42,784 bases of DNA from Staphylococcus phage SpaA1. Within the stretch, counting starts at the first letter, position 1, and each line of letters begins with the position of its first letter. The notes under the pieces are model-generated. The model was not told the DNA's origin. It worked only from the letters and a program-made list of their open reading frames with translations, and did no database searches. The DNA lies in sequence record HE614281.1. One strand, 5' to 3'. A program made the position numbers and the translations under genes. Positions 12,829-28,810 of the stretch are shown piece by piece.

Positions 12829-12840
12829 GTAGGTGATGAT

Positions 12841-14319
12841 ATGACTGGAATCAGTTTCTTTAGTTTTAACGGGAAAAGAAATTCAAATGTAATCCCATTG
12901 CAGGGTAAAAAACGCCCTGCATGGGCTCCTTTGGAACGTACATTCCTTGAAGTCCCTCACTATCCAGGTGGGCGTTTGATAAGAACACAAACAAAAATGA
13001 GAAAAATAATTATACCGGTTGCATTATTTTATGAATCTATGGAAGAGGCTGAAAAGTTAAAGGAAGAAATAGCTAATTGGCTTATTACAGATCAACCTCA
13101 AGAACTGATCTTTGATGATGAAAAAGATCGCACGTATTTGGCCCTTATTGATGAATCGTTTGACCCACAGCAATTAGTGAATTTAGGAGAAGGAGTCCTT
13201 ACTTTTGTTTGTGAAATGCCATATAAGTTAGGACCTACTAAAACGGTAGAATTTGAAATGGATGGACGTGGGTTAATAGCAAATGTTCAAAATAAAGGTA
13301 CTGTTCATTCTAATCCTATAATTGAGATTGAAATTACGAAACCGAACACTTTTTTAGATGTATGGTTTGGTGGGGTATCTTTAAGTGATCGAGATTATTT
13401 TCGTATTGGGATGCCGCTAAAAACTGTGGAAAAGCCTGTAGAAAGGAATCAAAGGCTTATATGGGATGAAATGGCCACTACGGTCGGATGGAGTAAAGTC
13501 AGCTCAATGGAAGATGGGGAACCGGTTGGTGAAATGAAATCAGATAAATATCAATTTTATTGTTCTGATTTTGGAACGGGAAAAGGATGGCACGGTGCAG
13601 CTGTTAAAAAAAGTATCCCTGGTGGCCCAGTAGAAGATTTTATCATGCAAGCTTACGTTACTTGTAAGAGCAAGAAAATCAATGAAATGGGACGAGTTGA
13701 GATAGCGATACTCGATGAAAACAGTAAAGTTCTTTCAAAAATTGCCATGAACGATCTCTATTGGCAAGCCGAACAAAATTTTGGAACGATGGTTATTGGA
13801 TACGATAACAAACCAGGAAAAACAGGTTTAATTTATGAGAGTGGTGATTATCCAAATACATGGAATCAGTATTATGGTAGGTTGTGGATTGCTAGGACCG
13901 GAAATGTATGGGAGGCTTATATTTCAAAATTTCTTCCTGGAACAGAAAAAGATGGTTCAGAACGCTTTGCGAGATGGACTGATAAAGACAATAAGCATAT
14001 GGAAAAAGCAGCTCAAATCCAGATTAGTATCATGCAGTGGCAAGATGTACCACCAGTAGAAGCGATGACAGTTTCTGATTTGAAATTTTGGAAAGTAAAT
14101 TTAAATAATCAAAATACACCACCTTATATATTCGATGTTGGTGATAAAGTAGTGATCGATACAGAGAACACTCACGTCAGTATTGAAGGGAAAAACGCGA
14201 TTAACATAAAAGAGTTTTTCAGTAATTTTCCTGTTATTAATAAAGGTGCTAATATAATCGAAATTATGCCATCTGATATTGGAACAGCAAAGGTTACATA
14301 TAGGGAGCGTTTTAGATGA
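12841..14319 (+). CDS. Distal tail protein (Dit) with an internal insertion domain
   Basis: 492 aa directly after the tape measure gene and before the Tal gene; its size implies an evolved Dit with an extra domain. Confidence 0.7.
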   Translation: MTGISFFSFNGKRNSNVIPLQGKKRPAWAPLERTFLEVPHYPGGRLIRTQTKMRKIIIPVALFYESMEEAEKLKEEIANWLITDQPQELIFDDEKDRTYLALIDESFDPQQLVNLGEGVLTFVCEMPYKLGPTKTVEFEMDGRGLIANVQNKGTVHSNPIIEIEITKPNTFLDVWFGGVSLSDRDYFRIGMPLKTVEKPVERNQRLIWDEMATTVGWSKVSSMEDGEPVGEMKSDKYQFYCSDFGTGKGWHGAAVKKSIPGGPVEDFIMQAYVTCKSKKINEMGRVEIAILDENSKVLSKIAMNDLYWQAEQNFGTMVIGYDNKPGKTGLIYESGDYPNTWNQYYGRLWIARTGNVWEAYISKFLPGTEKDGSERFARWTDKDNKHMEKAAQIQISIMQWQDVPPVEAMTVSDLKFWKVNLNNQNTPPYIFDVGDKVVIDTENTHVSIEGKNAINIKEFFSNFPVINKGANIIEIMPSDIGTAKVTYRERFR

Positions 14320-17300
14320 GAACACCAAGTGGATTACTTCATGTTGTTGATTTTAAAACAGATCAAATTATATCAGCTATTCAACCAAAAGATTACTGGG
14401 CTGATAACCGTCATTGGGAAATCAAAAATAACATTGATATATTTGATTTTACAACTTTTGACGGCACTCCACATGCAATTACATTACAACAGCAGAACTT
14501 GGTTTTAAAGGAAGTACGAGATGGTCGCATTGTTCCGTATGTTATTAACAATGAAGTAGAAAAAGATTCAAATGATAGATCTTTAACTGTACACTCGTCT
14601 GGTGCTTGGGTTCAAATAGCGAAAGATGGGATTATTAAACCTCAACGTATAGAGAGCGAAACAGTTAATACGTTTATTGATATCGCTCTTGCCGATTCAA
14701 AATGGCAACGTGGAATAACGGATTATTCTTCATTCCACACTATGACTATCGACGAATTTATTGATCCTCTCACTTTTTTAAAGAAAATTGCTTCTTTGTT
14801 TGAGTTAGAAATCCAATATCGCGTCGAAGTAATGGGTTCCAAGATTACCGGCTGGTACGTAGATATGATAAAGAAGCGAGGGCGAGAAACTGGCAAGGAA
14901 GTAACTCTAGGAAAAGATTTAGTTGAGGTTAGAAGAATTGAACATTCTAGAGATATTTGCACAGCACTTGTCGGATTTGTACGAGGTGAAGGTGACAAAC
15001 TTATCACGGTGGAGAGCATAAATAAAGGACTACCTTACATCGTCGATAATGACGCATTTCAGCGATGGAATGCGCATGGTAAACATAAATTTGGTTTCTA
15101 CACTCCAGAAACAGAAGATCAAAATATGACACCAGAGCGGCTTATGACTCTCATGAAAACAGAATTAAGGAAACGAGTCAATACTTCCGTTTCTTATGTA
15201 GTAGAAGCACAATCGATTGGACGTATTTTCGGACTAGCACATGAACTAATTAACGAGGGTGATACAATCCGAATCAAAGATACAGGCTTCACTCCTAAGT
15301 TATACCTAGAAGCACGTGTAATTGCTGGTGATGAATCTTTTACGGATCCTACACAGGATAAATATGTGTTTGGTGATTATCGTGAACTTACTGATCCGAA
15401 CGAGGAATTAAAAAAGATTTACAATCGAATCCTTAGTAAATTCGGTGAGAAACAAGAAATACTGGATCAGTTAGATAAATTAGTGAAAGATGCAAATGAA
15501 ACAGCTAGTGATGCTAAGAAAGAATCCGAAGCAGCGAAAACATTGGCTGAAAAAGTACAAGAGAATCTTAAAAATAACACGGTAGACATCATTGAAGCAA
15601 AGAATCCACCGACAACAGGGCTTAGACCTTATAAGACACTTTGGCGTGATATTAGCAATGGAAAGCCTGGTATTTTGAAAATATGGACAGGCGCAGCTTG
15701 GGAATCGGTCGTACCTGATGTTGATTCAGTTAAGAAAGAAACGTTGGAACAGGTGACAAAAGATATTAATGCTAGTGCGGAAAAGCTAGATGCTAGAGTT
15801 AAAGAAGCTGAAACGAAAGCAGACAATCTACAAAAAGACTTCAATGCTGTTAAAGGAGAACAAGAAAGAGTCAGTCAGGTAACTAAGGCGCTTGAAGAAA
15901 GTGACGAGGCAACTAAAGAAACAATCACACGTATACAAGGTACTCAAGAAGATATGAACAAAACAATCGTTGAGACTACAAAAGGCGTTGAAGGGCTACA
16001 AAGTACTGTATCCGATATTAAAAAAGATCAAAACGGTATTACAGATCGTGTAGTAAAAACAGAACAAAACATTAACGGTATTTCCAGTTCCATTGAACAA
16101 ATCAACAAAACGTCATCACAAACAATTCAAAAGTTAAATAAAGTTGAAGAAGATGCAAATGGAACAAAGCAAACCATCGAACGAATCGAAAAGAATGTAA
16201 ATAACCTTGATGATGATGTTATCAACCTTGTAAGAGGAACTAAGACGTTAACAACTAACGAAGAATTATCTTTAAAAGGTGCTCGCCTATCTGTTATTAA
16301 GGACACGTACAATGGGAATGCTATCGCGCAAACTGATACAGAATGGCAAGGTATAGCCGTTAAACCCAGTGAATTAATCAAGCGAGGGAAAATAAAAATT
16401 GGTGATACTGTAACATTTTCTGTAACAGCTAGAATGATAGGTGGGGAATCTACACAAGTATTCTTTCCTAACAGTGCTGGTAAAACAACAGTTAATGGAG
16501 AATGGAAAAGAGTTTCGGTAACAATTCCAGTCGGATCTGATGCCGCTGATCCAAATGTTGTATATAGATTCGAAGCTGAATCAATACCTAAAGGCGCTTT
16601 ATACCAACAAACTTCACCTATGCTATCGTTAACTAAAAAAGTTTATCCGTGGAGACCTGCACCTGAAGACCAGGCAGACAGTAACGAATTTATCAAAGTT
16701 ACAACTGAAATTAAAGCAGAAGCTGGGAAAATCTCGACAAAGTTAGAACAGGTTGAGGCTCGTACTGTAGGCGTTGAAAACTGGCTAATCAATACAGGCC
16801 CAAACGAAAGACCTCAAACAATCGGGATGATTGGTGGCGCGGTGTTGAATAAAGTTACATCATTTGTTCAGCCTGGCGAATACGTAGCGATTGAATGTCA
16901 AGATCATACAGACGCCTTTTATCAATTCCATCTAGATAATACTAAGATAGGAGACTTTGAAAAAGGGAAAGATATAACAATATCTTTAGACATTCAAAAT
17001 GATGTGCTTTTAGATTTTATTTTATTCCAATACATCAACGGATCGTGGAGTGAGTCAGTACAAAAGCCTGTGCCAGCTAAAGACTGGCGTCGTGAGTCAT
17101 GGACGTTTAAAATCGATGTTCGTGCTACTGGTTGGGGATTTAGAATTCGTTTTGCTAGAAATGAAGCATCTAAAGGGAAAAGGTTTCGTTTCAAGAAAGC
17201 TAAACTAGAAAAGGGTTCTGTTCCAACAGACTTCAGCAAGTCAACATATGAATTAGAGCAAAGTGTGGATGGTGTAAAATCTACTGTAACTAAGGTGCAG

Positions 17301-19025
17301 GATAACCAAGCCGGATTTGATAAGCGTGTTGCTACTGTAGAAAAAGATGCAACTACCATTAAACAAAATGTCTCTTTCATACAAAATACGCAGACAGAAC
17401 AAGGAAGACAATTACAAGAGGCGAAAGCTGGTTGGGAAAATACTGCGAAAGCACTTGAAGGTAAAGTGGAGCTTAAACAAGTAGAGGATTATGTTGCTGG
17501 ATTTAAGATACCTGAGTTGAAGCAAACAGTTAATAAAAATAATCAAGATTTATTGGGCGAATTAGCTAACAAACTTGCAACTGAGCAATTTAATCAAAAA
17601 ATGACTTTGATTGATAACCGCTTTACTATCAATGAACAGGGTATCAATGCTTCGGCTAAAAAGACAGAGGTATATACAAAAGAACAAGCAAATGGGCAAT
17701 TTGCCACATCATCTTATGTAAGAGATATGGAAACCCGTCTTCAGTTAACTGAAAAGGGTGTTAGTATATCAGTAAAAGAAAATGATGTAATCGCAGCATT
17801 CAATATGAGTAAAGAAAACATTACTTTGAATGCGAACAGAATTAACTTAGTAGGTTTTATTACAGCAAATCATATCAAAGGAAAAGTTTTAGAAGGAGTA
17901 ACACTTAAAACGAGTGGAAACAGATTTGTTGAAATAAATAAACAAGACATGAAGATTTTTGATTTAGATAAGCCACGTGGTTATATAGGATTTATGGAAA
18001 CAAATGATGGAAGTATTCAACCTTCATTAGTCCTTGGTTCTGATAATAGAAAATACGCTGGTACAGGATCATTTTATATTTATCAAGTCATGCCGCGAAG
18101 TAATGGAGTCGATCAACCTTCTAAAGCATATGCAAAATTTGGGATTTCTAAAGGAGAAAATGCAGAAGGAACTAATATTTGGTCAAACTATATTCAAATG
18201 CATAATGACGGTGGACATCTGAGCGTATATTCAGATGGACAATTTCGTTTTCAAAACTTGAATAATATTATTTTTGAATCTGAAGGATGGGCTCCAGGAT
18301 ATGGTTACTTCTCTGTAACTACAACTGAGCCGCATATTTTTACAAATAACGCGGGGCAGTTTACTTTCAAAAGAAAAGGCAGTGACTATAAAATACATTT
18401 CATAAACGGCGCCACCGATCATGATTTAATCATGGGTAATGCAATGATAAGATCAAGTTTTGTACAAGGTTATAACAACGGATTACAGATTAAAGATATG
18501 ATGGGCCAAGGATGGAAAGATATAGAATTAAGAACACTGCGAGCTAAAGAAAATATATCTGCTACAGGACGTATGTGGGCGCAAGAATTTATCCCTAATT
18601 CTTCTCGTACGCTTAAAACGGACATAGAAGACCTTCCATTCTCTGCTTTAGATAAAATCAACTCTGTAAACATCAAACAGTATCACTTTATAAGAGATGT
18701 TGAACGCTTCGAGTCAGGGGAATCTATTACACTACCAATTAATTACGGTATGATTGCGGAGGACTCTGACGATGTATTCACCACACCACAAAAAGACGCT
18801 GTAACACTTTATAGCTCGGTTGCAATTTCTATTCAAGCAATACAAGAAGTTGACTTTAAAGTTAAAAATCTTCAATTTGACCACGGTATGTGGAAGCAGG
18901 AAGTTGACACTCTTAAAGAACAACTTGAAGCAGAAAAACTTGAGAAAGTTTCAATGAAAGCTGAAATTGATGAATTAAAGGTATTAGTACAACAATTAAT
19001 AAATGAGAAACCAGAGCAGCCATAA
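14316..19025 (+). CDS. Tail-associated lysin / tail fibre protein (Tal) with central coiled coil and C-terminal S74-type intramolecular chaperone domain
   Basis: 1569 aa; N-terminal approximately 380 aa is prophage tail endopeptidase-like; long heptad region approximately 15400-16250; C-terminal motif SSRTLKTDIEDLPFSALDKINSVNIKQYHF typical of auto-cleaving tail-fibre chaperone domains. Confidence 0.8.
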   Translation: MRTPSGLLHVVDFKTDQIISAIQPKDYWADNRHWEIKNNIDIFDFTTFDGTPHAITLQQQNLVLKEVRDGRIVPYVINNEVEKDSNDRSLTVHSSGAWVQIAKDGIIKPQRIESETVNTFIDIALADSKWQRGITDYSSFHTMTIDEFIDPLTFLKKIASLFELEIQYRVEVMGSKITGWYVDMIKKRGRETGKEVTLGKDLVEVRRIEHSRDICTALVGFVRGEGDKLITVESINKGLPYIVDNDAFQRWNAHGKHKFGFYTPETEDQNMTPERLMTLMKTELRKRVNTSVSYVVEAQSIGRIFGLAHELINEGDTIRIKDTGFTPKLYLEARVIAGDESFTDPTQDKYVFGDYRELTDPNEELKKIYNRILSKFGEKQEILDQLDKLVKDANETASDAKKESEAAKTLAEKVQENLKNNTVDIIEAKNPPTTGLRPYKTLWRDISNGKPGILKIWTGAAWESVVPDVDSVKKETLEQVTKDINASAEKLDARVKEAETKADNLQKDFNAVKGEQERVSQVTKALEESDEATKETITRIQGTQEDMNKTIVETTKGVEGLQSTVSDIKKDQNGITDRVVKTEQNINGISSSIEQINKTSSQTIQKLNKVEEDANGTKQTIERIEKNVNNLDDDVINLVRGTKTLTTNEELSLKGARLSVIKDTYNGNAIAQTDTEWQGIAVKPSELIKRGKIKIGDTVTFSVTARMIGGESTQVFFPNSAGKTTVNGEWKRVSVTIPVGSDAADPNVVYRFEAESIPKGALYQQTSPMLSLTKKVYPWRPAPEDQADSNEFIKVTTEIKAEAGKISTKLEQVEARTVGVENWLINTGPNERPQTIGMIGGAVLNKVTSFVQPGEYVAIECQDHTDAFYQFHLDNTKIGDFEKGKDITISLDIQNDVLLDFILFQYINGSWSESVQKPVPAKDWRRESWTFKIDVRATGWGFRIRFARNEASKGKRFRFKKAKLEKGSVPTDFSKSTYELEQSVDGVKSTVTKVQDNQAGFDKRVATVEKDATTIKQNVSFIQNTQTEQGRQLQEAKAGWENTAKALEGKVELKQVEDYVAGFKIPELKQTVNKNNQDLLGELANKLATEQFNQKMTLIDNRFTINEQGINASAKKTEVYTKEQANGQFATSSYVRDMETRLQLTEKGVSISVKENDVIAAFNMSKENITLNANRINLVGFITANHIKGKVLEGVTLKTSGNRFVEINKQDMKIFDLDKPRGYIGFMETNDGSIQPSLVLGSDNRKYAGTGSFYIYQVMPRSNGVDQPSKAYAKFGISKGENAEGTNIWSNYIQMHNDGGHLSVYSDGQFRFQNLNNIIFESEGWAPGYGYFSVTTTEPHIFTNNAGQFTFKRKGSDYKIHFINGATDHDLIMGNAMIRSSFVQGYNNGLQIKDMMGQGWKDIELRTLRAKENISATGRMWAQEFIPNSSRTLKTDIEDLPFSALDKINSVNIKQYHFIRDVERFESGESITLPINYGMIAEDSDDVFTTPQKDAVTLYSSVAISIQAIQEVDFKVKNLQFDHGMWKQEVDTLKEQLEAEKLEKVSMKAEIDELKVLVQQLINEKPEQP

Positions 19026-19115
19026 GCTGTTTTTTATTTTGCGCAAAGTACGGCTTTGAATAAATTCAAATCATAGATCAAGAGGGGCGATATCGCTTCT
19101 CTTTATTTTGAGGAG

Positions 19116-20084
19116 ATGATTAGTGTGAAACGAATAGTAGACCAAGCAATTTACGAAAAGCATGTTAGCCAAGGAAATAAAAACCTAGTCAAAGATTTTC
19201 TGATTGAAAAGAAAGCACAAGGAAAAGCGGCAAGCACTTTAAAGCAATACGGTTGGGATTTACGAATTATTTTGTTTCTAATACATCAACACTTCGGAAA
19301 TAAAAATCTTATTGATTTAACGCGTAAAGATATTCGAAATTTATCTATTATTTTTCAAGATATGAGGATGTCTAATGCTCGTGTGAACGGATTAATGAGT
19401 GCATTAAGGTCCGCGTTAGAGTTTTGTGCGGATGATGATGACTATGATTATGAATTTAATGTAGGTTCACGGGTACGTGGTTTACCTAAGAATCCAGTTA
19501 GAGAAATCACTTTTATAACAGAAGAACAAATTGAGTGGTTAATCGATGAGCTAATAGCACAAGAAAGATATATGTTAGCAACGTATTTAGCACTTTCTTA
19601 TTACAGTGCAGCTAGAAAGAATGAGGTATACCAGGTTCAAAAAGAAGGGCTGACAGAACAATATTATACAAATGTGGTACGAGGAAAACGGGGTAAGAAG
19701 TTTAGATTATATTACAATCACCGGGTGCAGAAATGCATTCGTTTATATATAAATCAGCGAGGTAAGGATACTATTCCAGATTTGTTTGTGCGTGTGTATA
19801 AGAATGGTGAGAGAAAGAGATTGAACAAGAGTGTATTTAATTATTGGTGCGATATATTTGCTAAGATGCTGAACGAAAAGGAAGGGAAGGAATTTAAAAT
19901 GAATCCTCACTGTTTTCGACATAGCAGATTAGATAACTTGAAAGTACAAGGCGTACCACTTGAAAAACTAAAATCACTCGCCAATCATTCTGACATCTCA
20001 ACTACGGAGTCTTATCTAAAAGATAGAAGCGAAGAAGATATTGCAGAAATATTTGGAATGGATCCAAGTTACTTTGCAGCATAA
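19116..20084 (+). CDS. Tyrosine site-specific recombinase (XerC/XerD-like, no N-terminal arm-binding domain)
   Basis: 322 aa; core-binding region; catalytic ARKNE (Arg), HCFRHSR (His-x-x-Arg), and Tyr nucleophile in TTESYL. Confidence 0.8.
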   Translation: MISVKRIVDQAIYEKHVSQGNKNLVKDFLIEKKAQGKAASTLKQYGWDLRIILFLIHQHFGNKNLIDLTRKDIRNLSIIFQDMRMSNARVNGLMSALRSALEFCADDDDYDYEFNVGSRVRGLPKNPVREITFITEEQIEWLIDELIAQERYMLATYLALSYYSAARKNEVYQVQKEGLTEQYYTNVVRGKRGKKFRLYYNHRVQKCIRLYINQRGKDTIPDLFVRVYKNGERKRLNKSVFNYWCDIFAKMLNEKEGKEFKMNPHCFRHSRLDNLKVQGVPLEKLKSLANHSDISTTESYLKDRSEEDIAEIFGMDPSYFAA

Positions 20085-20097
20085 AAGGAGTGAAGAA

Positions 20098-20379
20098 ATG
20101 ACAATTGAAGTAGGAGTACTTATCGCAATCGCGTCAGCATTGATAGGATATATGTCTTATTCACTGAATCGCTCGAAAGAGATTAAGTCAGATGGTAGAC
20201 AAGGGGCAGAAACAAACGCGAAATTGGAGTACATCAGTAAAGGAGTTGATGATATTCGGATTGATTTAAAGGCAAATGAAAAGCAAATGATTGTACTTGG
20301 AGAGCGTATTACAAGGGTTGAAGAGAGTGCCAAACAAGCGCATAAGCGCTTAGATAATGTAGAAAAGGAGATAGATTAG
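20098..20379 (+). CDS. BhlA/UviB-like holin-associated membrane protein
   Basis: 93 aa; single N-terminal transmembrane segment (IEVGVLIAIASALIGYMSY) followed by charged coiled coil; first gene of lysis cassette; RBS AAAAGGAGTGAAGAAATG. Confidence 0.5.
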   Translation: MTIEVGVLIAIASALIGYMSYSLNRSKEIKSDGRQGAETNAKLEYISKGVDDIRIDLKANEKQMIVLGERITRVEESAKQAHKRLDNVEKEID

Positions 20380-21412: not shown

Positions 21413-21430
21413 TTTTATGAACAAAAATTA

Positions 21431-21460
21431 GAGCCGTCAAACGACGGCCCTTTTATTTCT
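21431..21460. terminator. Bidirectional rho-independent terminator closing the lysis operon (+) and the converging minus-strand gene
   Basis: GAGCCGTCAAACGACGGCCC hairpin followed by TTTTATTTCTT on plus; A/T-rich on both sides. Confidence 0.65.
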
Positions 21461-21782
21461 TCCATTCAACAAGAGTACGTTTGTTACATCTACGACAAAC
21501 AAATCCCTCAGCTTTATGTACAACAGGTTGTTTTTTGTTGCAGTTTGGGCATTTTACAAGTTGCTTACCTAAAGCTGAATATATAAAGAGCGCAGAAAAG
21601 AATGTTAAACCTAAACCTGGTAAAATTCCAATTATGGTAAAGCATAACACTACTGAAATTAATAAACCGAAAGATCCAATTAAAAAATATATAACTCTCT
21701 TCAACTGATTAGCTGTAGAACTTTTCTTTTCTTCTAATTCAATAATGAATGATTCCCCATCAGCTGTTTTTCGTAACTCCAT
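21453..21782 (-). CDS. Membrane protein with two transmembrane segments and C-terminal CxxC...CxxC zinc ribbon; accessory (moron-like)
   Basis: 109 aa; hydrophobic stretch VIYFLIGSFGLLISVVLCFTIIGILPGLGLTFFSALFIY; CPNC...CRRC motif; opposite strand to flanking phage modules. Confidence 0.5.
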   Translation of the reverse strand: MELRKTADGESFIIELEEKKSSTANQLKRVIYFLIGSFGLLISVVLCFTIIGILPGLGLTFFSALFIYSALGKQLVKCPNCNKKQPVVHKAEGFVCRRCNKRTLVEWKK

Positions 21783-21850: not shown

Positions 21851-22072
21851 TTACATCCAGAAATCATTTTCATCTATATTTTTTCCTAACTTCTTCAAAC
21901 CTCTAACAATTTGAGATATTGTAGAGTATTTGGGTTTGTATTTTGTATCACTACATAATCTAGATATAGTGCCTGTACTTAATTTTGATTTTTTTTCAAG
22001 TTCAATTTGTTGAATTCCCTGCCTATCTAACCATTTCCCGAATTTACTACGCTTTTTTCCTAAACCGAACAT
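21851..22072 (-). CDS. Small XRE-family HTH DNA-binding protein
   Basis: 73 aa; helix-turn-helix LSTGTISRLCSD...STISQIVRGL; transcribed divergently from the repeat array at 22165-22325. Confidence 0.5.
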   Translation of the reverse strand: MFGLGKKRSKFGKWLDRQGIQQIELEKKSKLSTGTISRLCSDTKYKPKYSTISQIVRGLKKLGKNIDENDFWM

Positions 22073-22164
22073 TTAAACTCACCTCATCAACAGAATGACC
22101 AATTCCTCAAATTTTTAAACTTAGAAAAAATTTTGAGAAATTGTCCGAGCCCACCCTAATATGA

Positions 22165-22325
22165 TGTACCAAGGTAGTTACCACGGTAAGAGAAGTTCCA
22201 GTTACCAAAGTAGCTATCAAGGTAGGAACAGATGATTTTACCATGGTAGGTATCATGGTAAGTTTTAGATTTCTACCACGGTAGCTACCAGGGTTCCTAT
22301 CAAGGTAACGCTACCATGGTAATGA
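22165..22325. repeat. Array of 10 copies of a 10-bp near-palindromic motif TAYCANGGTA arranged as 5 doublets with ~35-37 bp periodicity
   Basis: Motif copies at approximately 22168, 22180, 22203, 22215, 22240, 22252, 22275, 22287, 22299 and 22313: TACCAAGGTA, TACCACGGTA, TACCAAAGTA, TATCAAGGTA, TACCATGGTA, TATCATGGTA, TACCACGGTA, TACCAGGGTT, TATCAAGGTA, TACCATGGTA. The array lies between the divergent HTH gene and the FtsK-like operon. Confidence 0.75.
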
Positions 22326-22383
22326 GTGTGTGAAGCGTTACTTTATCTAGATTTTATATTCTGTTTATAGAGGGGCGAAAGAA

Positions 22384-22515
22384 ATGAACATCAAGATGGC
22401 AGCATCAGAAGAAATTTGTGAGTATTGTAAATGTTTATTATCCGATTGGTTGTTTTGGAGATGGAATGGAAAAAAGTATTGCTCAGAGTCTTGTGCGGAA
22501 TACGATAAAAAATAA
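22384..22515 (+). CDS. Small Cys-rich (zinc-binding?) protein
   Basis: 43-aa ORF MNIKMAASEEICEYCKCLLSD...CSESCAEYDKK with RBS AGAGGGGCGAAAGAAATG; below the ORF-track size cutoff. Confidence 0.35.
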   Translation: MNIKMAASEEICEYCKCLLSDWLFWRWNGKKYCSESCAEYDKK

Positions 22516-22534
22516 ATGACGAGGAGTGGAGTCT

Positions 22535-22855
22535 ATGTTTACAAGAAAGCAAGTCATCCCTTTTCGTTCATTTATGGATGGATCATACAAAATGAAAGAG
22601 CAGAAAATACAAAGATATCATTCATTAAGTCCGTTAGCATTTGTTCATATGTCGGATTCTATTTTAAATACGTATCTGGCATTAGGGATAATGGGAACGG
22701 CTTTAACTGGGGCAGTCATGTTAGAAAGATATCTTGTACGAAATGATTATGTATCAGCGGCTAAATTATTATCCAATGGGATTCATTATGGCGTGAAAAT
22801 TGGTGGAGTGGGATTCATTACCTATGTATTTGTTCGAATTGTAATTATGTTCTAG
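22535..22855 (+). CDS. Small membrane protein (two hydrophobic segments)
   Basis: ATG at 22535 after GAGGAG; hydrophobic segments LALGIMGTALTGAVML and IGGVGFITYVFVRIVIMF; immediately upstream of FtsK-like gene. Confidence 0.45.
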   Translation: MFTRKQVIPFRSFMDGSYKMKEQKIQRYHSLSPLAFVHMSDSILNTYLALGIMGTALTGAVMLERYLVRNDYVSAAKLLSNGIHYGVKIGGVGFITYVFVRIVIMF

Positions 22856-22865
22856 GAGGCTTGTC

Positions 22866-24032
22866 ATGGGAATCATAAAAGAATGGCTTCATAAGAGGTC
22901 TTTAAAGCACCAGATTATTGAGGTGTTCCAAAAGGCAGGTTTATATACGGAACATCAAACACGTGGAGGGAAAATCCCAATTTATCCAAAGGTTCATGCT
23001 GTTTTTTCTTCAAACGAAAGCGTGAAATATGTATTTACTATCCCCAACGGATTAGATCCAAAGACAATTGAAAAGAAATGGTTTTGCTTTCAACAAATAT
23101 TTGGACGGAATGTAGCAATTGAGGGAGATATTAAAAAGTTTGTGCTCAATGTATTTCATTCTGATTGTGGTTTGAAACAATACAACTACAGTTATAAGCA
23201 ATGGCAGCCATTCATAAAAGAATGCCGTCTTCCTATTGTAGTAGGGCGTGACCAGTTTGGAAACATGCTTGTTTATGATATGGTAAACCCCAATACACCC
23301 CATTTACTCATTGCAGGAGAAACAGGTAGCGGAAAAAGTAGCATGGTACGTGTTGTACTATCTACACTCATTCAATGCGTGTCTCCTGATAAATTATATT
23401 TGTACCTAGGCGACTTGAAAAATTCTGAATTTCATTTCTTGCGTAGAGTAAAACATGTGAAAGAAGTGTGCATGGAAGAAATTGAAATGAAAGTCATGCT
23501 TCATAAGGTTTGGAATGAAATCAGGGAACGCAGAAAGCTCATGGAAGAATATGAAGTGGATCACATTGATGAGTACAATAAATTAAATCCTGATAAACAG
23601 AAACCCTATATTCTGTTAGCTATTGATGAAGTAGCGATGCTACAAGATGAAAAAGAATGTATGACGACAATAGAAAAAATATCGGCAGTTGGTCGGGCAC
23701 TAGGCGTATTCCTCATGCTATCTATGCAAAGACCAGATGCAAAGGTGTTAGATGGTAAGTTAAAGCTAAATATGACGGTTAGAATGGGCTTTAAATGCGA
23801 TAACACAATTAATAGTAATATTATGGGTACATCTGGATCAGAACACTTAGAACAATCTGGCCAAATGATTTTAAAGTTAAATGGATTAAAGAAAGTGCAA
23901 GCTCCTTATTTAGAACTTAATAAAGCAAAGCAAATAGTTGAACCTTACCGTTTACTCAAAGAAGATATAACGTTTCAGAATTCGCTACAACAAGAACTTC
24001 CTTTGTTTGGAGTGTTGGAACATGAAGAGTAG
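22866..24032 (+). CDS. FtsK/SpoIIIE-family DNA translocase-like ATPase (TraB/Tra-like single-protein DNA transfer or segregation ATPase)
   Basis: 388 aa; Walker A LLIAGETGSGKSS; Walker B LLAIDEVAML; spacing and size typical of FtsK-like Tra proteins of small Gram-positive integrative elements and plasmids. Confidence 0.8.
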   Translation: MGIIKEWLHKRSLKHQIIEVFQKAGLYTEHQTRGGKIPIYPKVHAVFSSNESVKYVFTIPNGLDPKTIEKKWFCFQQIFGRNVAIEGDIKKFVLNVFHSDCGLKQYNYSYKQWQPFIKECRLPIVVGRDQFGNMLVYDMVNPNTPHLLIAGETGSGKSSMVRVVLSTLIQCVSPDKLYLYLGDLKNSEFHFLRRVKHVKEVCMEEIEMKVMLHKVWNEIRERRKLMEEYEVDHIDEYNKLNPDKQKPYILLAIDEVAMLQDEKECMTTIEKISAVGRALGVFLMLSMQRPDAKVLDGKLKLNMTVRMGFKCDNTINSNIMGTSGSEHLEQSGQMILKLNGLKKVQAPYLELNKAKQIVEPYRLLKEDITFQNSLQQELPLFGVLEHEE

Positions 24033-24630
24033 AGATAAAGCGATTATAAAAGACTTATGCCGCTTTAGATGCCTATCACGAGATGATATTATCGATTTGC
24101 ATTTCCAAGGACTCAAGAAAGCTGTGACCAGTTGCAATACGGTTATGAAACGATTAAGTCGAGATGGGAGTGTGGAAGTAAATGTGTTACAGAAACCATA
24201 TATCTACTTTCCACAACCGAGTCCGATTCGAAAAACAAGTCAAAAGATTCCGCACTTCCTTGCTATTGTGAATGTATATAAGCAACTTCTTCAGTACGAA
24301 AAGCCTAAATTGTTTAAAGTCGAGCCGAAGTATGGTAAAGCATATATGGAGCCAGACATATTTGCAATTTGGCGACAATCTCCATTTTTCATAGAAGTGC
24401 AGAATTCGGTATACAGTAAGAAAGTAATGCAAGAGAAATTAAACCGATATGAATTTTACTTTCATAGTTTGGAATGGCAACAAGAACCATGGCAACCCAA
24501 GAAATCGAAATACTTCCCTTCTCTTCTGGTAATTACCGATAGCCAGTATGACATCTCCTCTTCAAATTTTCGCATATTTCAAGCTAAATCCATTCACGAT
24601 TTCATGAATCAAATGGTTGTTAAGACATAA
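24007..24630 (+). CDS. Replication-relaxation-like family protein (putative winged-helix DNA-binding protein)
   Basis: 207 aa overlapping the FtsK-like gene by 26 nt; positively charged N-terminal region; gene pairing typical of FtsK-like plus replication-relaxation partners; assignment from composition and context only. Confidence 0.35.
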   Translation: MECWNMKSRDKAIIKDLCRFRCLSRDDIIDLHFQGLKKAVTSCNTVMKRLSRDGSVEVNVLQKPYIYFPQPSPIRKTSQKIPHFLAIVNVYKQLLQYEKPKLFKVEPKYGKAYMEPDIFAIWRQSPFFIEVQNSVYSKKVMQEKLNRYEFYFHSLEWQQEPWQPKKSKYFPSLLVITDSQYDISSSNFRIFQAKSIHDFMNQMVVKT

Positions 24631-24634
24631 CAAG

Positions 24635-25516
24635 TTAACCATCAATAAATTCTTTGAAAAAAGCTAGTCCATTATATTTATTTGCCTTACGATTTGCAAG
24701 GTTATGTATCTCTCTAAAGCTATCAATGTAGTTATAGACGATTTTTTTGAACGTTCGAGTAAAGTATCCAATAGGATTTTTCATCGATTTTCCATTATGC
24801 TCGTACTTATGTGTTTTAAAGTACAAAACAGAAGAAGCATTTGCAAGAAGGGTGTGAAATACATCTGTATCTGCTAATAAATTAAATTGTTTTGCAGCCT
24901 TCTTTGCAATGTTTCTGGCATTTTTGAAAGATTCATTAATCACATTGGGTGAAAAAGCAGTTTGTAATTCCATACGCATAGATTGTGGCACACGATAATC
25001 GATGAAGTCTAAATCATGTTGAAAAGATTGCGAAACTTCTTCTTTACGTTTATTTATATCTTTTATCTTTTGTTTTAAGGTTTTTGTAGTTGTTTTCTTG
25101 GTGTGACAAATTTCCACAGTTTTAGTAGGGGCTTCTGTGACAAGTTGTTCTTCCGTAATAATTGGCTGAATAATGATTATATTACTCGTTTGTCTCATGT
25201 CACTCTTACGTTTCATTTCCAGTTGCTTAATAATGCCAAGTGATTCTAAGTAGTGGCATGCACGGATAACAGTTCTACGGCTAATATCAAGATCTTCGGC
25301 AATGTGTTTTTTCGTTCTGAAAGATACACCAAGAAATTTAGAAGAATAATTGTGTAATTTATTTAATACAGCTAATTGATTTTTATTTAATTGGTCAGCA
25401 AATTGCTTTTTATATGCACGTACAGTGTCATTTAATTCCTTGAGAGTTTGAAAAGATACTAAGTTTTCGTATGTTTCTGTACTAGCAAGAATAGTAATTG
25501 CTTGTTTCTTTTTCAT
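24635..25516 (-). CDS. HTH-containing protein, putative plasmid-type replication initiator (Rep-like)
   Basis: 293 aa; HTH KHIAEDLDISRRTVIRACHYLESLGII; K-rich linker; adjacent to integrase and FtsK-like gene as in Rep-Tra-Int modules. Confidence 0.35.
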   Translation of the reverse strand: MKKKQAITILASTETYENLVSFQTLKELNDTVRAYKKQFADQLNKNQLAVLNKLHNYSSKFLGVSFRTKKHIAEDLDISRRTVIRACHYLESLGIIKQLEMKRKSDMRQTSNIIIIQPIITEEQLVTEAPTKTVEICHTKKTTTKTLKQKIKDINKRKEEVSQSFQHDLDFIDYRVPQSMRMELQTAFSPNVINESFKNARNIAKKAAKQFNLLADTDVFHTLLANASSVLYFKTHKYEHNGKSMKNPIGYFTRTFKKIVYNYIDSFREIHNLANRKANKYNGLAFFKEFIDG

Positions 25517-25659
25517 AAGGGCTCGTCTCCTTTAAAAGTAAAAAAGCAACAGTATGCCACAAAATGTAAGCAAACTGTTGCGGAGGAACCCTTATGTACG
25601 ATAAAATAAGGTACATAAAGAGTTACAGCAAGTGTTTGCCTAGTTACGTTAGGCGGACG

Positions 25660-25689
25660 GTTAATAAAGTGTTCCACCACTTTATTAAC
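25660..25689. repeat. Perfect 12-bp inverted repeat with 6-bp spacer (GTTAATAAAGTG-TTCCAC-CACTTTATTAAC) downstream of integrase 3' end; candidate attP core or operator
   Basis: Read directly from the sequence; it sits in the 373-bp non-coding region between the Rep-like and integrase genes. Confidence 0.5.
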
Positions 25690-25889
25690 ACGCTGTGCTC
25701 TTTTATTTTTTTATTAGTTTAATTTCTATTTTTTCGGTAACGAATATGGTCACAAACAACCAGAAAAGTGTTGCCATTTATATTTTTTGATGTAGCGTAA
25801 AACTGCTTAATATAGATGTTTTGTGCGCTTTTTGGAAATTAAAGTTTTATATATCAATGATTACTCTGATCATTGCGAATTGCATGATA

Positions 25890-26990
25890 TCAACTCTTTA
25901 AAGGGCGTAGGTCACGAATTGGTAACGAAAATGATAAATCTTGTTCCATAAATGCAACCACTTCTGCTTGTTTTGACGGATATAAATGACTATATGTATT
26001 TAACGTCGTTGACACATCCGAATGTCCTAGGCGCTGGGCTACCACAAGTGGACTGACACCTCTATTTATTAAATAAGATGCATGGGAATGTCGAAATTCA
26101 TGAAGTAGAATTTTTGGTATTCCAGAAGCAACAACATATTTGGCAAAACGTTTATGAAGGGTAGCTGTCGCTATACTTGTGTAAAATTCACCAAATACAA
26201 TATAATCATTTTTTATCGGTGCTCCTAATGTAGCATGTTCTTTTAATGTTTTCAATAAGTCTATGACAAGAGACGGTAGCATAATAATACGATTTGATGC
26301 TTTGGTTTTGGGTTTTGTAACTTGTCTGTTATAGTTGGTTTTATTAATATTAATTGATTTTTCTTCAAAGTTAATATCTTCCCATGTTAATGCTAGCAAT
26401 TCGCCAGTTCTTGCCCCGCTATAATAAAGAGTCGTAAAAAAGGCTTGATACAGTAAATCATCTACTACATGAATGAATTGTTTAAACTCATCAAACTCCC
26501 AAAAGTTTAATCGTTTATTCGATTCTTTTTCAAAGTTGCCAGCAATTTTTGCTGGATTACTTGTGAGACCAAAAAACTTTATTGCGAAATTAAAAATTGA
26601 GGACAGTACGGTATGAATCTTTTTCAAATAAACAGCTGAATACTTATGAATAATTTCGTTTTGGTAGATCATGATATGCTTAGCAGTTATGTTGTTAATT
26701 TTTGATTTCCCGAATTTTTTTAGTAAATGATTTTCAAGGATGGCTTTAATTGTGTTAATTGAAGACTGTTTTCTTCTCTGGCAATACCAATCAAAATAGC
26801 TATCAGCAACTTGAGCAAAAGTTAAACTTGAAGTTGTTTCTTTTTCCACTAACATTTTGGCTTCCGCTTCACGAGCTTCTTTTTTTGTTTTAAATCCACG
26901 ACGTTTTACTTGTTTTTGAGTGCCATCAAACTGACGGACTCTGACAACGAAGAAATATGTTCCGCGTTCTTTATCTTTGTAGACCACCAT
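25890..26990 (-). CDS. int: Tyrosine integrase (phage integrase family with N-terminal arm-type DNA-binding domain)
   Basis: 366 aa; N-terminal arm-binding-like domain; catalytic region with R, HEFRHSHASYL (His-x-x-Arg), and Tyr in LNTYSHLY. Confidence 0.9.
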   Translation of the reverse strand: MVVYKDKERGTYFFVVRVRQFDGTQKQVKRRGFKTKKEAREAEAKMLVEKETTSSLTFAQVADSYFDWYCQRRKQSSINTIKAILENHLLKKFGKSKINNITAKHIMIYQNEIIHKYSAVYLKKIHTVLSSIFNFAIKFFGLTSNPAKIAGNFEKESNKRLNFWEFDEFKQFIHVVDDLLYQAFFTTLYYSGARTGELLALTWEDINFEEKSININKTNYNRQVTKPKTKASNRIIMLPSLVIDLLKTLKEHATLGAPIKNDYIVFGEFYTSIATATLHKRFAKYVVASGIPKILLHEFRHSHASYLINRGVSPLVVAQRLGHSDVSTTLNTYSHLYPSKQAEVVAFMEQDLSFSLPIRDLRPLKS

Positions 26991-27507: not shown

Positions 27508-28746
27508 ATGTTTGGAGAAGGGGGAGTTTTTATGTGTTTTCGTAAAAAAATATGTGATTTAATCGAAGACAGGGACGATCTAAACTTTACAGATGTCGCA
27601 AATAAAATGGGTGTTTCAAAACAATATTTACAAAAGTTTAAAAATCAAGGTAACATCAGTTTTCCTAATTTACTGAGATTGGCTTCAGTTGTAAGTACAA
27701 AAAGTGAAGAGCTTTCAATGTTTTTACATGAGTGGTGCGTAGAATTAGATAGTACAGAAGCCATTAAGCATAGTTTTGAATATGCAGCATTGGTTCGTGA
27801 TAAGGTTTTATTGAATAAATTACTAGAAAAACACAAAAATGAATCTGGTACAGTTGCAGAGTATGTAAATGTTTATGGAGTATTATATAAGTATATGAAT
27901 GATGAAATTTCAGGTACTGAAATTATTAAGTGCTTAAAGATGTATAACCGTCCTTCTGATAACATGTTAAATATTTTGATTGATATTATGAAATGTTACG
28001 ATTATTATCATCAAAAGAAATTCAATGCAATGTTTGATTTGGTTGACGAAATTGAGAAAGAGTTAATCTCAATTGATGAGAGTGATCGTAAAATGTTTCT
28101 TAAGGAATGTTATATGTATCGACTTGCAGAAGTGTTTTCCCCGCTTAATCTACAAAGAAAAAATTTAGAGTCTTCAAGATATTATGCCAAGTTATTAATA
28201 GAAGCAAATCTATGTACAAAAACTGTTTCAGATGCTTTATATTTATTGGGGATGTCATATTTAATTGATGATGAGGAACTTTGTTTAGAGTATTTACAGG
28301 AAAGTTATAATTTATCCAAAAAAGTAAATGACGCTTCAATTGAAGCAGCAGCGCGTTATAATTTAGATGTTGTCAAAATGTATTTAAACCTTAGTTTGCC
28401 ATTAGATTCAGATGTACGTTTAATCAATTTTCAAAATAATCCCACAGATGAAGATTCACGAGATGGATTAAAAGAAATTTTAAAGTCAAATGGAGAAAGA
28501 GATTTTTTAAGACTTTTTCTAGCAATCACTGATACAGAGCCTAACAGAATATACGAATGTTTTAAAGAATTTCTTGTTCAATCGAACTACCTCTTTGTAA
28601 GTTTAGTAGCTAAAGAAATAAATAGAAGAGGGGATAATTCCTTGCTAGTACAGCAAATGATTGATTATAATATGGATAAAGGAGTGGATGAAAATGAAAA
28701 AATTTACTTTAGTACTTTGCGCCTTTTCAATGTTAGCTGTGAGTAG
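27508..28746 (+). CDS. RNPP-family HTH plus TPR-like receptor, AimR-like (arbitrium-type) transcriptional regulator
   Basis: 412 aa; N-terminal HTH FTDVANKMGVSKQYLQKFKNQGNISFPNLLRLASVV; remainder helical repeat-rich; immediately followed by overlapping signal-peptide mini-ORF; alternative start ATG 27532 after GAAGGGGGAG. Confidence 0.6.
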   Translation: MFGEGGVFMCFRKKICDLIEDRDDLNFTDVANKMGVSKQYLQKFKNQGNISFPNLLRLASVVSTKSEELSMFLHEWCVELDSTEAIKHSFEYAALVRDKVLLNKLLEKHKNESGTVAEYVNVYGVLYKYMNDEISGTEIIKCLKMYNRPSDNMLNILIDIMKCYDYYHQKKFNAMFDLVDEIEKELISIDESDRKMFLKECYMYRLAEVFSPLNLQRKNLESSRYYAKLLIEANLCTKTVSDALYLLGMSYLIDDEELCLEYLQESYNLSKKVNDASIEAAARYNLDVVKMYLNLSLPLDSDVRLINFQNNPTDEDSRDGLKEILKSNGERDFLRLFLAITDTEPNRIYECFKEFLVQSNYLFVSLVAKEINRRGDNSLLVQQMIDYNMDKGVDENEKIYFSTLRLFNVSCE

Positions 28747-28810
28747 TGTTTCGTATAATATTATAAAAAAAGGTTCATTTCAATCTGTAGAAATTAAACC
28801 AGGTGGCTAA
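28694..28810 (+). CDS. Secreted pro-peptide, AimP-like (MKKFTLVLCAFSMLAVSSVSYNIIKKGSFQSVEIKPGG)
   Basis: 38-aa ORF in +1 frame overlapping the last 53 nt of the receptor gene; RBS GGAG 9 nt upstream; N-terminal Sec signal-like segment; followed directly by a terminator. Confidence 0.5.
   Translation: MKKFTLVLCAFSMLAVSSVSYNIIKKGSFQSVEIKPGG

Follow-up and report, generated by a model that had tools for sequence, protein, structure and literature searches.

Layout of the block

Staphylococcus phage SpaA1 (sequence record HE614281.1) carries, downstream of its endolysin gene, a block of plasmid-like genes that includes an FtsK/SpoIIIE-family ATPase. In phages of the Bacillus cereus group these genes are known as an “additional module” (annotated as ORF20-24 in phage BtCS33) whose role is unassigned in print, and gamma/Wbeta-type anthrax phages and many B. 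cereus-group prophages have carried it for about twenty years without a role being given to it. The DNA analysed here, called the window below, is the whole stretch of 42,784 nucleotides, and positions refer to it unless another locus is named. Between 21400 and 27500 it agrees at 100% identity with Bacillus phage BtCS33 (Camtrevirus), a temperate phage of B. thuringiensis in whose published annotation the genes of the block are ORF19-ORF25, and it is near-identical to phages phi4I1 and BtiUFT6.51-F. A first-pass annotation, made from the sequence alone, had described a self-contained block of regulator, repeat array, FtsK-like translocase, replication-relaxation gene, Rep-like gene and integrase. 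Profile searches and translations found every one of these parts where it had been placed. The block is not self-contained, because the phage attachment site (attP, 25852-25874) separates the integrase from the remainder. It is a composite of an integration system (integrase and attP), a separate winged helix-turn-helix (wHTH) gene, open reading frame 24 (ORF24), and a portable cassette shared with plasmids. The cassette may be a mobilisation-type module under XRE control, made up of an array resembling an origin of transfer (oriT), a split coupling ATPase and a MOBC-type relaxase, a tentative interpretation to which we give somewhat less than an even chance.

The left edge of the accessory region is a bidirectional intrinsic terminator following the endolysin gene (21430-21451), in which a terminator scan recognised a GC-rich stem of 9 pairs and, on both strands, a T-run after it. 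A small XRE-family regulator (21851-22072, minus strand; PF01381 HTH_3, E 4.9e-6) is transcribed divergently from the cassette operon and is presumed to be its repressor, with a Kor-like logic; an XRE gene takes the same position in phage Wbeta (wp19), the Bacillus subtilis phage 268TH007, the phage-plasmid pl41 and the plasmids p33 and pBCXO1. Between the regulator and the operon, a repeat search identified an inverted repeat with 17-nt arms, 88% complementary, and a 10-nt loop (22100-22143). It overlaps the −35 region of a promoter-like site found by promoter scan (TTGAGA, 18 bp, TAATAT; 22133-22162, plus strand) and is possibly the XRE operator; its sequence differs between cassette variants. 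The −10 region and flanks of the promoter recur in p33, pR1041, pl41 and pBCXO1.

Immediately downstream lies the array of short palindromic repeats that had been noticed at first reading. The array is real: ten TAYCAnnGTA units in a 12-bp register occupy 22164-22322, spaced by 12 or 24 bp and paired with a 36-bp period. The motif TAYCANRGTA occurs 14 times in the window, 11 times inside the array, against 1.26 occurrences expected by chance, and none of 100 shuffled sequences reached 14. Autocorrelation peaks at 12, 24 and 36 bp are found in BtCS33, phage phiCM3, p33, pR1041, pl41 and the Enterococcus plasmid pTEF1. Units of the TAYCAARGTA type also stand upstream of the cassette in pBCXO1 and pBtic100, with a periodicity that is weaker where measured. 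The array thus accompanies the cassette in seven phage, phage-plasmid and plasmid contexts; the more distant cassette of 268TH007 has a different upstream repeat with an 11-bp period. That the array serves as XRE operator only was considered and ruled out. Since phiCM3 retains it though its XRE gene is gone, the array must be more than an operator, and we propose, from its layout, an oriT-like or iteron binding site.

Four plus-strand genes follow. The first of the operon encodes a 43-aa zinc-ribbon-like peptide with a CxxC-17-CxxxC pattern (22384-22515; phrog_1520, 4e-9), which is absent in p33 and disrupted in pR1041, and whose matches to YdaE and metallothionein models lie below the cut-offs. 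The second product is a small protein with two hydrophobic, presumably transmembrane (TM), helices (22535-22855; phrog_6470, 5e-32 over residues 46-109), called the 2-TM protein here, and its gene stops 10 nt short of the ATPase start. The ATPase (22866-24032, 388 aa; PF01580, 1.8e-23; phrog_1358, 4.6e-118) is of the FtsK/SpoIIIE type, as had been thought, and the Walker A motif GETGSGKSS and the Walker B motif LLAIDEVAML are found in its translation. The replication-relaxation gene called in the first reading likewise holds up (24022-24630, 202 aa; PF13814, 43.0 bits against a cut-off of 25.3, E 6.8e-11), and its start overlaps the ATPase stop. We refer to its product as the Replic_Relax protein. 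No protein of the cassette exceeded any cut-off in an NCBIfam search.

The ATPase consists of a single FtsK_SpoIIIE domain followed by about 40 residues, with neither a TM segment nor a hydrophobic N-terminus nor a gamma/wHTH domain. Its closest solved relatives are EssC (4nh0, 77.9 bits), TcpA (6o1w-z, 76.2 bits; 2.3e-20 over residues 109-350) and FtsK (2ius, 69.4 bits), so that by sequence it appears about equidistant from EssC, the TcpA coupling protein and FtsK. A gene for a small protein always precedes the FtsK gene, as in Wbeta (wp21), pBCXO1, p33 (64 aa) and 268TH007 (95 aa), and the Wbeta and pBCXO1 proteins are annotated as membrane proteins. We propose that the 2-TM protein is the detached membrane anchor of the ATPase; the two together may have the topology of a split type IV coupling protein.

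Beyond the cassette, ORF24 (24635-25516, minus strand; HTH_36, 27.8 bits) encodes a wHTH domain, a disordered linker and a helical C-terminal domain. The full-length tyrosine integrase (25890-26990, minus strand) has Phage_integrase, SAM-like and Arm-DNA-bind_4 domains, the last being the arm-binding domain.

Integration, portability and maintenance

The 23-bp attP core (AATGATCAGAGTAATCATTGATA on the minus strand) lies 16 bp past the integrase stop codon, between integrase and ORF24. It was mapped as the overlap of the integrase–host junction (window 26190-25852) and the host–ORF24 junction (25874-25317), taken from lysogen loci L031 and L038. An exact-sequence look-up placed the integrase protein in many B. 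thuringiensis chromosomes, and a scan of genome collections with the integrase returned only unrelated recombinases of 25-35% identity in metagenome-assembled genomes. In several B. thuringiensis lysogens the host sphingomyelinase and phospholipase C genes stand directly past the 3′ end of the integrase gene, and ORF24, backed by Replic_Relax and FtsK, is found about 41 kb away at the other prophage end, beside an alanine-racemase-like gene. The order in lysogens is therefore attL-int-aimR-cI/cro-replication-packaging-tail-lysis-XRE-array-FtsK-Replic_Relax-ORF24-attR, in which the cassette fills an accessory slot between the lysis genes and attR. Since the attP position and both prophage junctions have been mapped, the integrase can be assigned to the phage: it moves the whole 41-kb phage and stands outside the cassette.

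These junctions bear on the idea, raised in the first reading, of a nested and independently mobile integrative element with its own integrase. The gene set does look superficially like an integrative mobilizable element (IME) or an actinomycete integrative conjugative element (AICE), and one prophage remnant (locus L042) has kept integrase, lysogeny switch and cassette while losing all virion genes, so that this combination can persist as an island. The attP position and the two junctions, however, show the integrase moving the entire phage. A search for direct repeats bracketing the block gave nothing but chance matches within genes, short and AT-rich. Wbeta, Tavor_SA, phiCM3 and 268TH007 have a syntenic arrangement, across genera and with tyrosine or serine integrases alike; the block genes of Wbeta are wp19-wp27, and phiCM3 has lost ORF24 and half of the integrase. 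The junction mapping thus refutes the nested element, which we regard as extremely improbable.

Several observations on the lysogens stand apart from this question. The bacterial attachment site (attB) is within the host’s sphingomyelinase gene, at its 3′ end, adjoining phospholipase C. In lysogens the called sph reading frame enters phage DNA and overlaps the 3′ end of the integrase gene by 62 nt (window 25852-25892; L031 11040-12086), so that the C-terminus of the toxin is phage-encoded there; phIS3501, which integrates in hlyII, is a comparable case. The remnant mentioned above (L042 8001-16882, GCA_022625225.1) retains ORF24, Replic_Relax, FtsK, the 2-TM protein, the peptide, XRE and ORF19. 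Directly next to this stretch from ORF24 to ORF19 come the antirepressor, cro, cI, AimR and integrase genes, so that the remnant is in effect an island carrying both integrase and cassette. L033-L035 contain similarly truncated prophages. In two assemblies (L037 10001-17610 and L043 6608-15465) the integrase is joined to ORF24 across attP, as in a circular or virion-derived form, one of these joins lying at the end of a 2.9-Mb contig. Spontaneous excision or induction in the cultures that were sequenced may account for them, or else tandem prophages.

The cassette itself travels far beyond this phage. That its gene set is plasmid-like, as first described, is borne out by the unit of XRE gene, repeats, small TM protein, FtsK and Replic_Relax on Bacillus plasmids that are not phages. 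A tblastn search with the Replic_Relax protein matched 346 plasmid records (204 from Bacillus and 123 from Priestia), and an FtsK gene is annotated beside most of the matches listed. The B. mycoides bacteriocin plasmid p33 has the XRE gene on the minus strand and the small protein, FtsK and Replic_Relax on the plus strand, with no phage genes in the annotated flanks. The same lack of phage genes in the annotated flanks applies to pBCXO1, a pXO1-like plasmid from an anthrax-like strain of B. cereus (L051 13003-15624), and to pR1041-bc-183k, whose gene table leaves the FtsK gene unlisted. On pBtic100 the cassette stands beside AimR and other prophage-type lysogeny genes, and in the annotation of pBtoxis, a mosquitocidal toxin plasmid, Replic_Relax is the one gene of the cassette listed (L048 7995-8615). 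The 41-kb circular phage-plasmid pl41 has the cassette followed by ParM/StbA and possesses neither an integrase nor ORF24, by which a function of FtsK as integrase helper is ruled out. The cassette is also present in Wbeta-like phages and B. subtilis phages. All close homologues found by BLAST belong to endospore-forming Bacillales (Bacillus, Priestia, Geobacillus, Brevibacillus and Paenibacillus). The cassette is hence independent of whether its carrier integrates or replicates as a plasmid.

A comparison of the B. subtilis phages 268TH007 and 268TH002 bears on its necessity. The two genomes match at 100% on both sides of a 2.5-kb indel; the segment, joined via 9-bp microhomology, contains a second XRE gene besides those for the small protein, FtsK and Replic_Relax. 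From this clean indel it follows that the cassette is accessory and unneeded for plaque formation.

Plasmid-type maintenance was the other role foreseen in the first reading, in which the phage would persist as a plasmid prophage by means of the module. Here ORF24 would drive low-copy replication, the array would act as centromere or iteron, and the ATPase would segregate the episomal prophage. The evidence for the “Rep-like” label of ORF24 is weak: only HTH_36 is above its cut-off, and DnaD_N is below (20.8 against 27). The matches of ORF24 to PHROG replication initiators are weak (2e-9 to 4e-4). Its product is 73% identical to that of a gene of pLUSID3, a prophage reported to be both integrated and episomal, where a DnaD-domain gene adjoins it in the same slot. 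Its N-terminus is about 60% identical to that of the only Rep candidate of 8-kb Priestia plasmids; a 5.3-kb Priestia record, being a linear and probably incomplete contig, is uninformative on the minimal replicon. An AlphaFold2 (AF2) model of ORF24 is confident for the wHTH at residues 25-118 only, and Foldseek against the PDB gave generic MarR-like wHTH matches and RepA_N (4pql) at E 0.03, which do not discriminate a Rep role. On these comparisons it is possible that ORF24 is a plasmid-type replication initiator. A tandem 12-bp array ahead of an operon, such as that of the cassette, resembles the centromeres tubC and parC, and the joins of integrase to ORF24 in L037 and L043 have the form expected of a circle.

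Against maintenance, BtCS33 is integrated in many chromosomes, and no full-length BtCS33-like copy was found among the 72,556 plasmid records of PLSDB, so that nothing there points to BtCS33 living as a plasmid. A profile search of the block found no ParA, ParM or TubZ gene, and pl41, which has the cassette without ORF24, relies on its own ParM/StbA. In turn, pLUSID3 has an ORF24 homologue but no cassette, which makes the two separable. The conserved nuclease active site (see below) and the membrane anchor are foreign to known partition systems, and the cassette is dispensable in 268TH002. The plasmid-prophage state imagined for this module is not borne out by the chromosomal lysogens, the plasmid records and pl41, and we consider maintenance an unlikely function.

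Relatedness to MOBC relaxases and a possible mobilisation route

The protein that sets the cassette apart is Replic_Relax. It has an N-terminal wHTH-like region and a C-terminal half of the PD-(D/E)XK type. Its Wbeta homologue scores 60.4 bits over the full PF13814 profile and the TraX homologue of pTEF1 scores 28.5 bits. PF13814 represents the MobC relaxase superfamily (Coluzzi 2017, PMC5357655 Table 1) and has been placed in the PD-(D/E)XK fold (Steczkiewicz 2012). MOB-suite types the relaxases of pTEF1 as MOBC. We take pTEF1 to be a pAD1-like plasmid. The functional residues of TraX are reportedly E28, D152, E170, E172, K176, R180 and Y181, and inspection of the sequence shows that the pTEF1 TraX homologue carries all of them.

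Among nine cassette homologues, down to 23% identity, P111-D112, E125, K139, Y143 and Y176 are among the invariant residues, and an R or K directly precedes Y143 in eight of the nine. An hhalign comparison pairs D112 of Replic_Relax with D152 of TraX, the catalytic aspartate of the PD-(D/E)XK core. Past the end of that alignment, and matched by eye, E125-V-Q127 followed by K132/133 resembles E170-I-E172 followed by K176 of TraX, and R142-Y143 resembles R180-Y181. The homologues share an E-x-[Q/D] motif, and in the Wbeta protein, again by eye, E-I-D-x-x-x-K has a spacing identical to E170-I-E172-x-x-x-K176. These correspondences suggest that the phage protein retains TraX-like active-site residues.

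A second line of likeness concerns the cis site. The pAD1-type oriT2 of pTEF1 consists of a 142-bp inverted repeat followed by six to seven tandem 12-bp repeats. The phage has a similar layout, with an inverted repeat of 17-nt arms followed by ten 12-bp-phased units, a putative binding site for the relaxase. The pAD1/pAM373 systems of Enterococcus (oriT2, TraW, TraX) thus agree with the cassette in having a PF13814 protein, in the conserved acidic, lysine and Arg-Tyr residues (matched in part by eye), in a cis site, putative in the phage, of inverted repeat and tandem 12-bp repeats beside the genes, and in an adjacent ATPase gene. They differ in that the phage encodes a soluble FtsK-type ATPase and, as a protein of its own, the 2-TM partner, whereas pTEF1 uses a VirD4/TraG-type coupling protein. 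The phage cassette is also without nearby mating-pore genes, its relaxase is distantly related to TraX and shorter (202 aa versus 261 aa), and its carrier is a virus.

The first-pass annotation had compared the block with the TraB-clt systems of Streptomyces and AICEs, and that comparison stands as analogy only: the match to plasmid_TraB (NCBIfam) reaches 38 bits against a cut-off of 800. Alike are the FtsK-like pump, the short cis repeats, the small membrane proteins, the repressor, and the integrase and Rep-like gene nearby. Unlike TraB, with which homology is limited to the ATPase core, the phage ATPase has no C-terminal wHTH for reading the repeats. The cassette moreover has a nuclease partner, which is absent from TraB systems, and unlike an AICE it is not bounded by att sites, the integrase being the phage’s. 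A pAD1-type MOBC relaxase with a 12-bp-repeat oriT is the closer homologous model.

TcpA systems, found in Firmicutes integrative and conjugative elements (ICEs), IMEs and small plasmids, resemble the cassette in being compact modules in which the ATPase gene comes immediately before that of the relaxase, and the phage ATPase is as similar to solved TcpA as to FtsK or EssC. In those systems a tyrosine integrase follows; that of the phage is not far off, with ORF24 and attP in between. TcpA has TM helices of its own, whereas the phage ATPase lacks N-terminal TM helices and the membrane segment is a separate gene 10 nt upstream. The relaxase partners of TcpA in those elements also differ: they are non-canonical, of the rolling-circle-initiator type, and a pairing with MobC was never observed there (PMC5357655).

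On the observed anatomy, family membership, distribution, dispensability and att site, we infer a possible mobilisation route in which binding, nicking and transfer would proceed as follows. Once XRE repression is relieved, the Replic_Relax protein would bind the array via its wHTH domain and, in the manner of TraX at pAD1 oriT2, use its PD-(D/E)XK site together with a conserved tyrosine to nick close by. It would then pass the DNA to the ATPase, held at the membrane by its 2-TM partner as a split coupling protein. The DNA might exit through the conjugative pore of a co-resident plasmid, or possibly unaided. Such a cassette would make any carrier replicon mobilisable, whether plasmid, phage-plasmid or excised phage genome.

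A number of points weigh against this route. The hhalign match to TraX is weak (probability 48.5%, E 1.8e-4) and covers the N-terminal half only. The fold is unconfirmed, as the AF2 model of Replic_Relax came from a shallow alignment and is unusable (mean pLDDT 46); a profile of its homologues gave zero matches to PDB sequences. MOB-suite types the cassette carriers p33, pl41, pBtoxis and pBCXO1 as non-mobilizable, from which it follows that the standard MOBC profiles miss this Replic_Relax subfamily. No type IV secretion genes were found beside the cassette on p33, pR1041, pl41, pBtoxis, pBtic100 or pBCXO1. The MobC relaxases of streptococcal IMEs pair with VirD4 and never with the FtsK-like TcpA (PMC5357655). 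Related FtsK genes are present in virulent Bacillus myophages too, and the FtsK gene of phage Fah belongs to the delayed transcription class in lytic growth (2014 review, PMC4113786), which a mobilisation role does not require. The array, finally, lies inside a predicted transcribed leader, downstream of the predicted promoter, and this leader is predicted to fold strongly as RNA (z −4.75); the array could be purely regulatory.

Another role, implied by a database label, would be nick-primed replication of the rolling-circle type, in which Replic_Relax nicks at the array to start phage or plasmid replication. The protein matches phrog_2190 (“replication initiation protein”) and phrog_9381 (“replication initiation by nicking”), and in Firmicutes a relaxase can often stand in for a rolling-circle initiator and vice versa (PMC5357655). 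The PHROG labels, however, probably go back to nothing but the family name, an O-like initiator and a DnaC-like loader are already encoded by the phage, and the cassette-bearing plasmids have their own typed replicons. As replication by this means would sit badly with a dispensable cassette and leaves the membrane-anchored ATPase unexplained, we hold it to be very unlikely.

An ATPase beside a nuclease on a mobile element also recalls two other kinds of system, the HerA-nuclease defence pairs and TdtA of the Thermus element ICETh1 (“transjugation”), in both of which, as in the cassette, the ATPase is of the hexameric-pump type. No classical type IV secretion system is involved when TdtA pushes DNA out of donor cells (PMC5365140). 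Both differ from the cassette in having ATPases of the HerA-like clade, NurA or type II restriction enzyme nucleases and no repeat array, and PADLOC models fail to match the phage nuclease. Defence or superinfection exclusion would mean that the ATPase-nuclease pair attacks or expels incoming DNA, the cassette being a moron on prophages and plasmids. Several features are in keeping with this: the position between lysis genes and attR is a classic accessory slot, presence varies between near-identical phages, plasmids and prophages hold the cassette in common, pairs of an FtsK/HerA-family ATPase and a PD-(D/E)XK nuclease are a known defence architecture, and the ATPase matches the PADLOC models SspH and mad8. 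These matches, like that to HerA, cover the generic ATPase domain only, and PADLOC-DB 2.0 gave no match for Replic_Relax, the 2-TM protein, the peptide or the XRE regulator. The Replic_Relax protein belongs to a relaxase family, and the conserved cognate 12-bp array beside the genes argues for action on the element’s own DNA. We regard a defence function as rather unlikely.

Published proposals for the module are sporulation control or help to the integrase. An idea akin to the former was put forward by the authors on Wbeta and BtCS33 (PMC3359378, PMC4113786): a septum-anchored SpoIIIE-like pump would either deliver the genome of phage or plasmid to the forespore or disturb translocation of the host chromosome. 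A membrane anchor, a DNA pump and a loading site would fit such a device, the phage encodes a sigma factor called sigma-F-like by its describers, and the close homologues of the cassette are all in endospore formers. This restriction to Bacillales may, on the other hand, only mirror the reach of BLAST, and FtsK-like genes occur in Mycobacterium, Listeria and Staphylococcus phages too. Such a sporulation-linked role lacks experimental support, leaves a site-specific nuclease without a role, and would provide a pump to an integrated prophage that enters the spore without one. Its likelihood appears low, much as for defence.

The published proposals omit the MOBC relaxase identity of the Replic_Relax partner, the repeat array, the plasmid copies and the attP position. 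New in the present analysis are the attP mapping that divides the block, the finding that the cassette is common to genuine plasmids and a phage-plasmid together with its clean indel, and the link to MOBC relaxases and the pAD1-like 12-bp-repeat oriT. A wider claim would be that temperate phages of Bacillaceae, phage-plasmids and pXO1-, pBtoxis- and p33-type plasmids share an unrecognised mobilisation cassette, in which a divergent MOBC relaxase acts with an FtsK-type coupling ATPase that is split and an oriT of 12-bp iterons; in this generality we find it somewhat unlikely.

Mobilisation by helper plasmids is possible for pBtoxis and the pXO1-type plasmids, to which no mob gene is known to have been assigned. 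If the mobilisation interpretation is right, the cassette would explain how these “non-mobilizable” Bacillus virulence plasmids are mobilised, by supplying the missing mob function of pXO1-like and toxin plasmids, and it would bear on the spread of toxin and virulence plasmids and of prophages among B. cereus-group bacteria. A phage-borne unit of relaxase, coupling protein and oriT would likewise give phages a means of conjugative transfer of their own. According to a 2025 review, no conjugative prophage or phage-plasmid is known, and mobilisation of prophages has been reported only through ICEs. Phages with the cassette would then have two routes between cells, virions on the one hand and conjugation or a helper-independent DNA pump on the other, and the latter would free them from a narrow, receptor-limited host range. 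Should the cassette be a defence or sporulation device instead, it would still be a new and widespread system with a defined cis site.

Neighbouring genes

Beside the integrase lies an arbitrium-type locus (27508-28810) with AimR at 27508-28746 (PF22871, 2.2e-24). A small reading frame overlapping the 3′ end of aimR encodes MKKFTLVLCAFSMLAVSSVSYNIIKKGSFQSVEIKPGG, which from its sequence resembles a secreted AimP precursor ending in a ...KPGG peptide.

On the other side of the cassette, between the endolysin terminator and the XRE gene, ORF19 (21453-21782, minus strand) encodes 109 aa that include a hydrophobic stretch and, at the C-terminus, a CxxC...CxxC zinc ribbon. It is kept at 79-87% DNA identity in Wbeta-like anthrax phages that are otherwise different in this region, and some records label it “telomerase-associated protein”.

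The tail module (10000-20100) shares 99-99.8% identity with circular plasmid records from B. thuringiensis HD-1 and other strains; these records are about 46.6-49.5 kb long and are probably plasmidial prophages. An Xer-like tyrosine recombinase (19116-20084) lies within this module, between tail fibre and holin, and in view of those records may be a plasmid-style multimer resolvase and not an integrase. The tail-fibre gene (14316-19025) encodes 1569 aa in the window versus 1341 aa in the BtCS33 record. The window thus represents a BtCS33-type phage with a different receptor-binding region, and both tail-fibre variants are present among the lysogens (loci L038 and L039).

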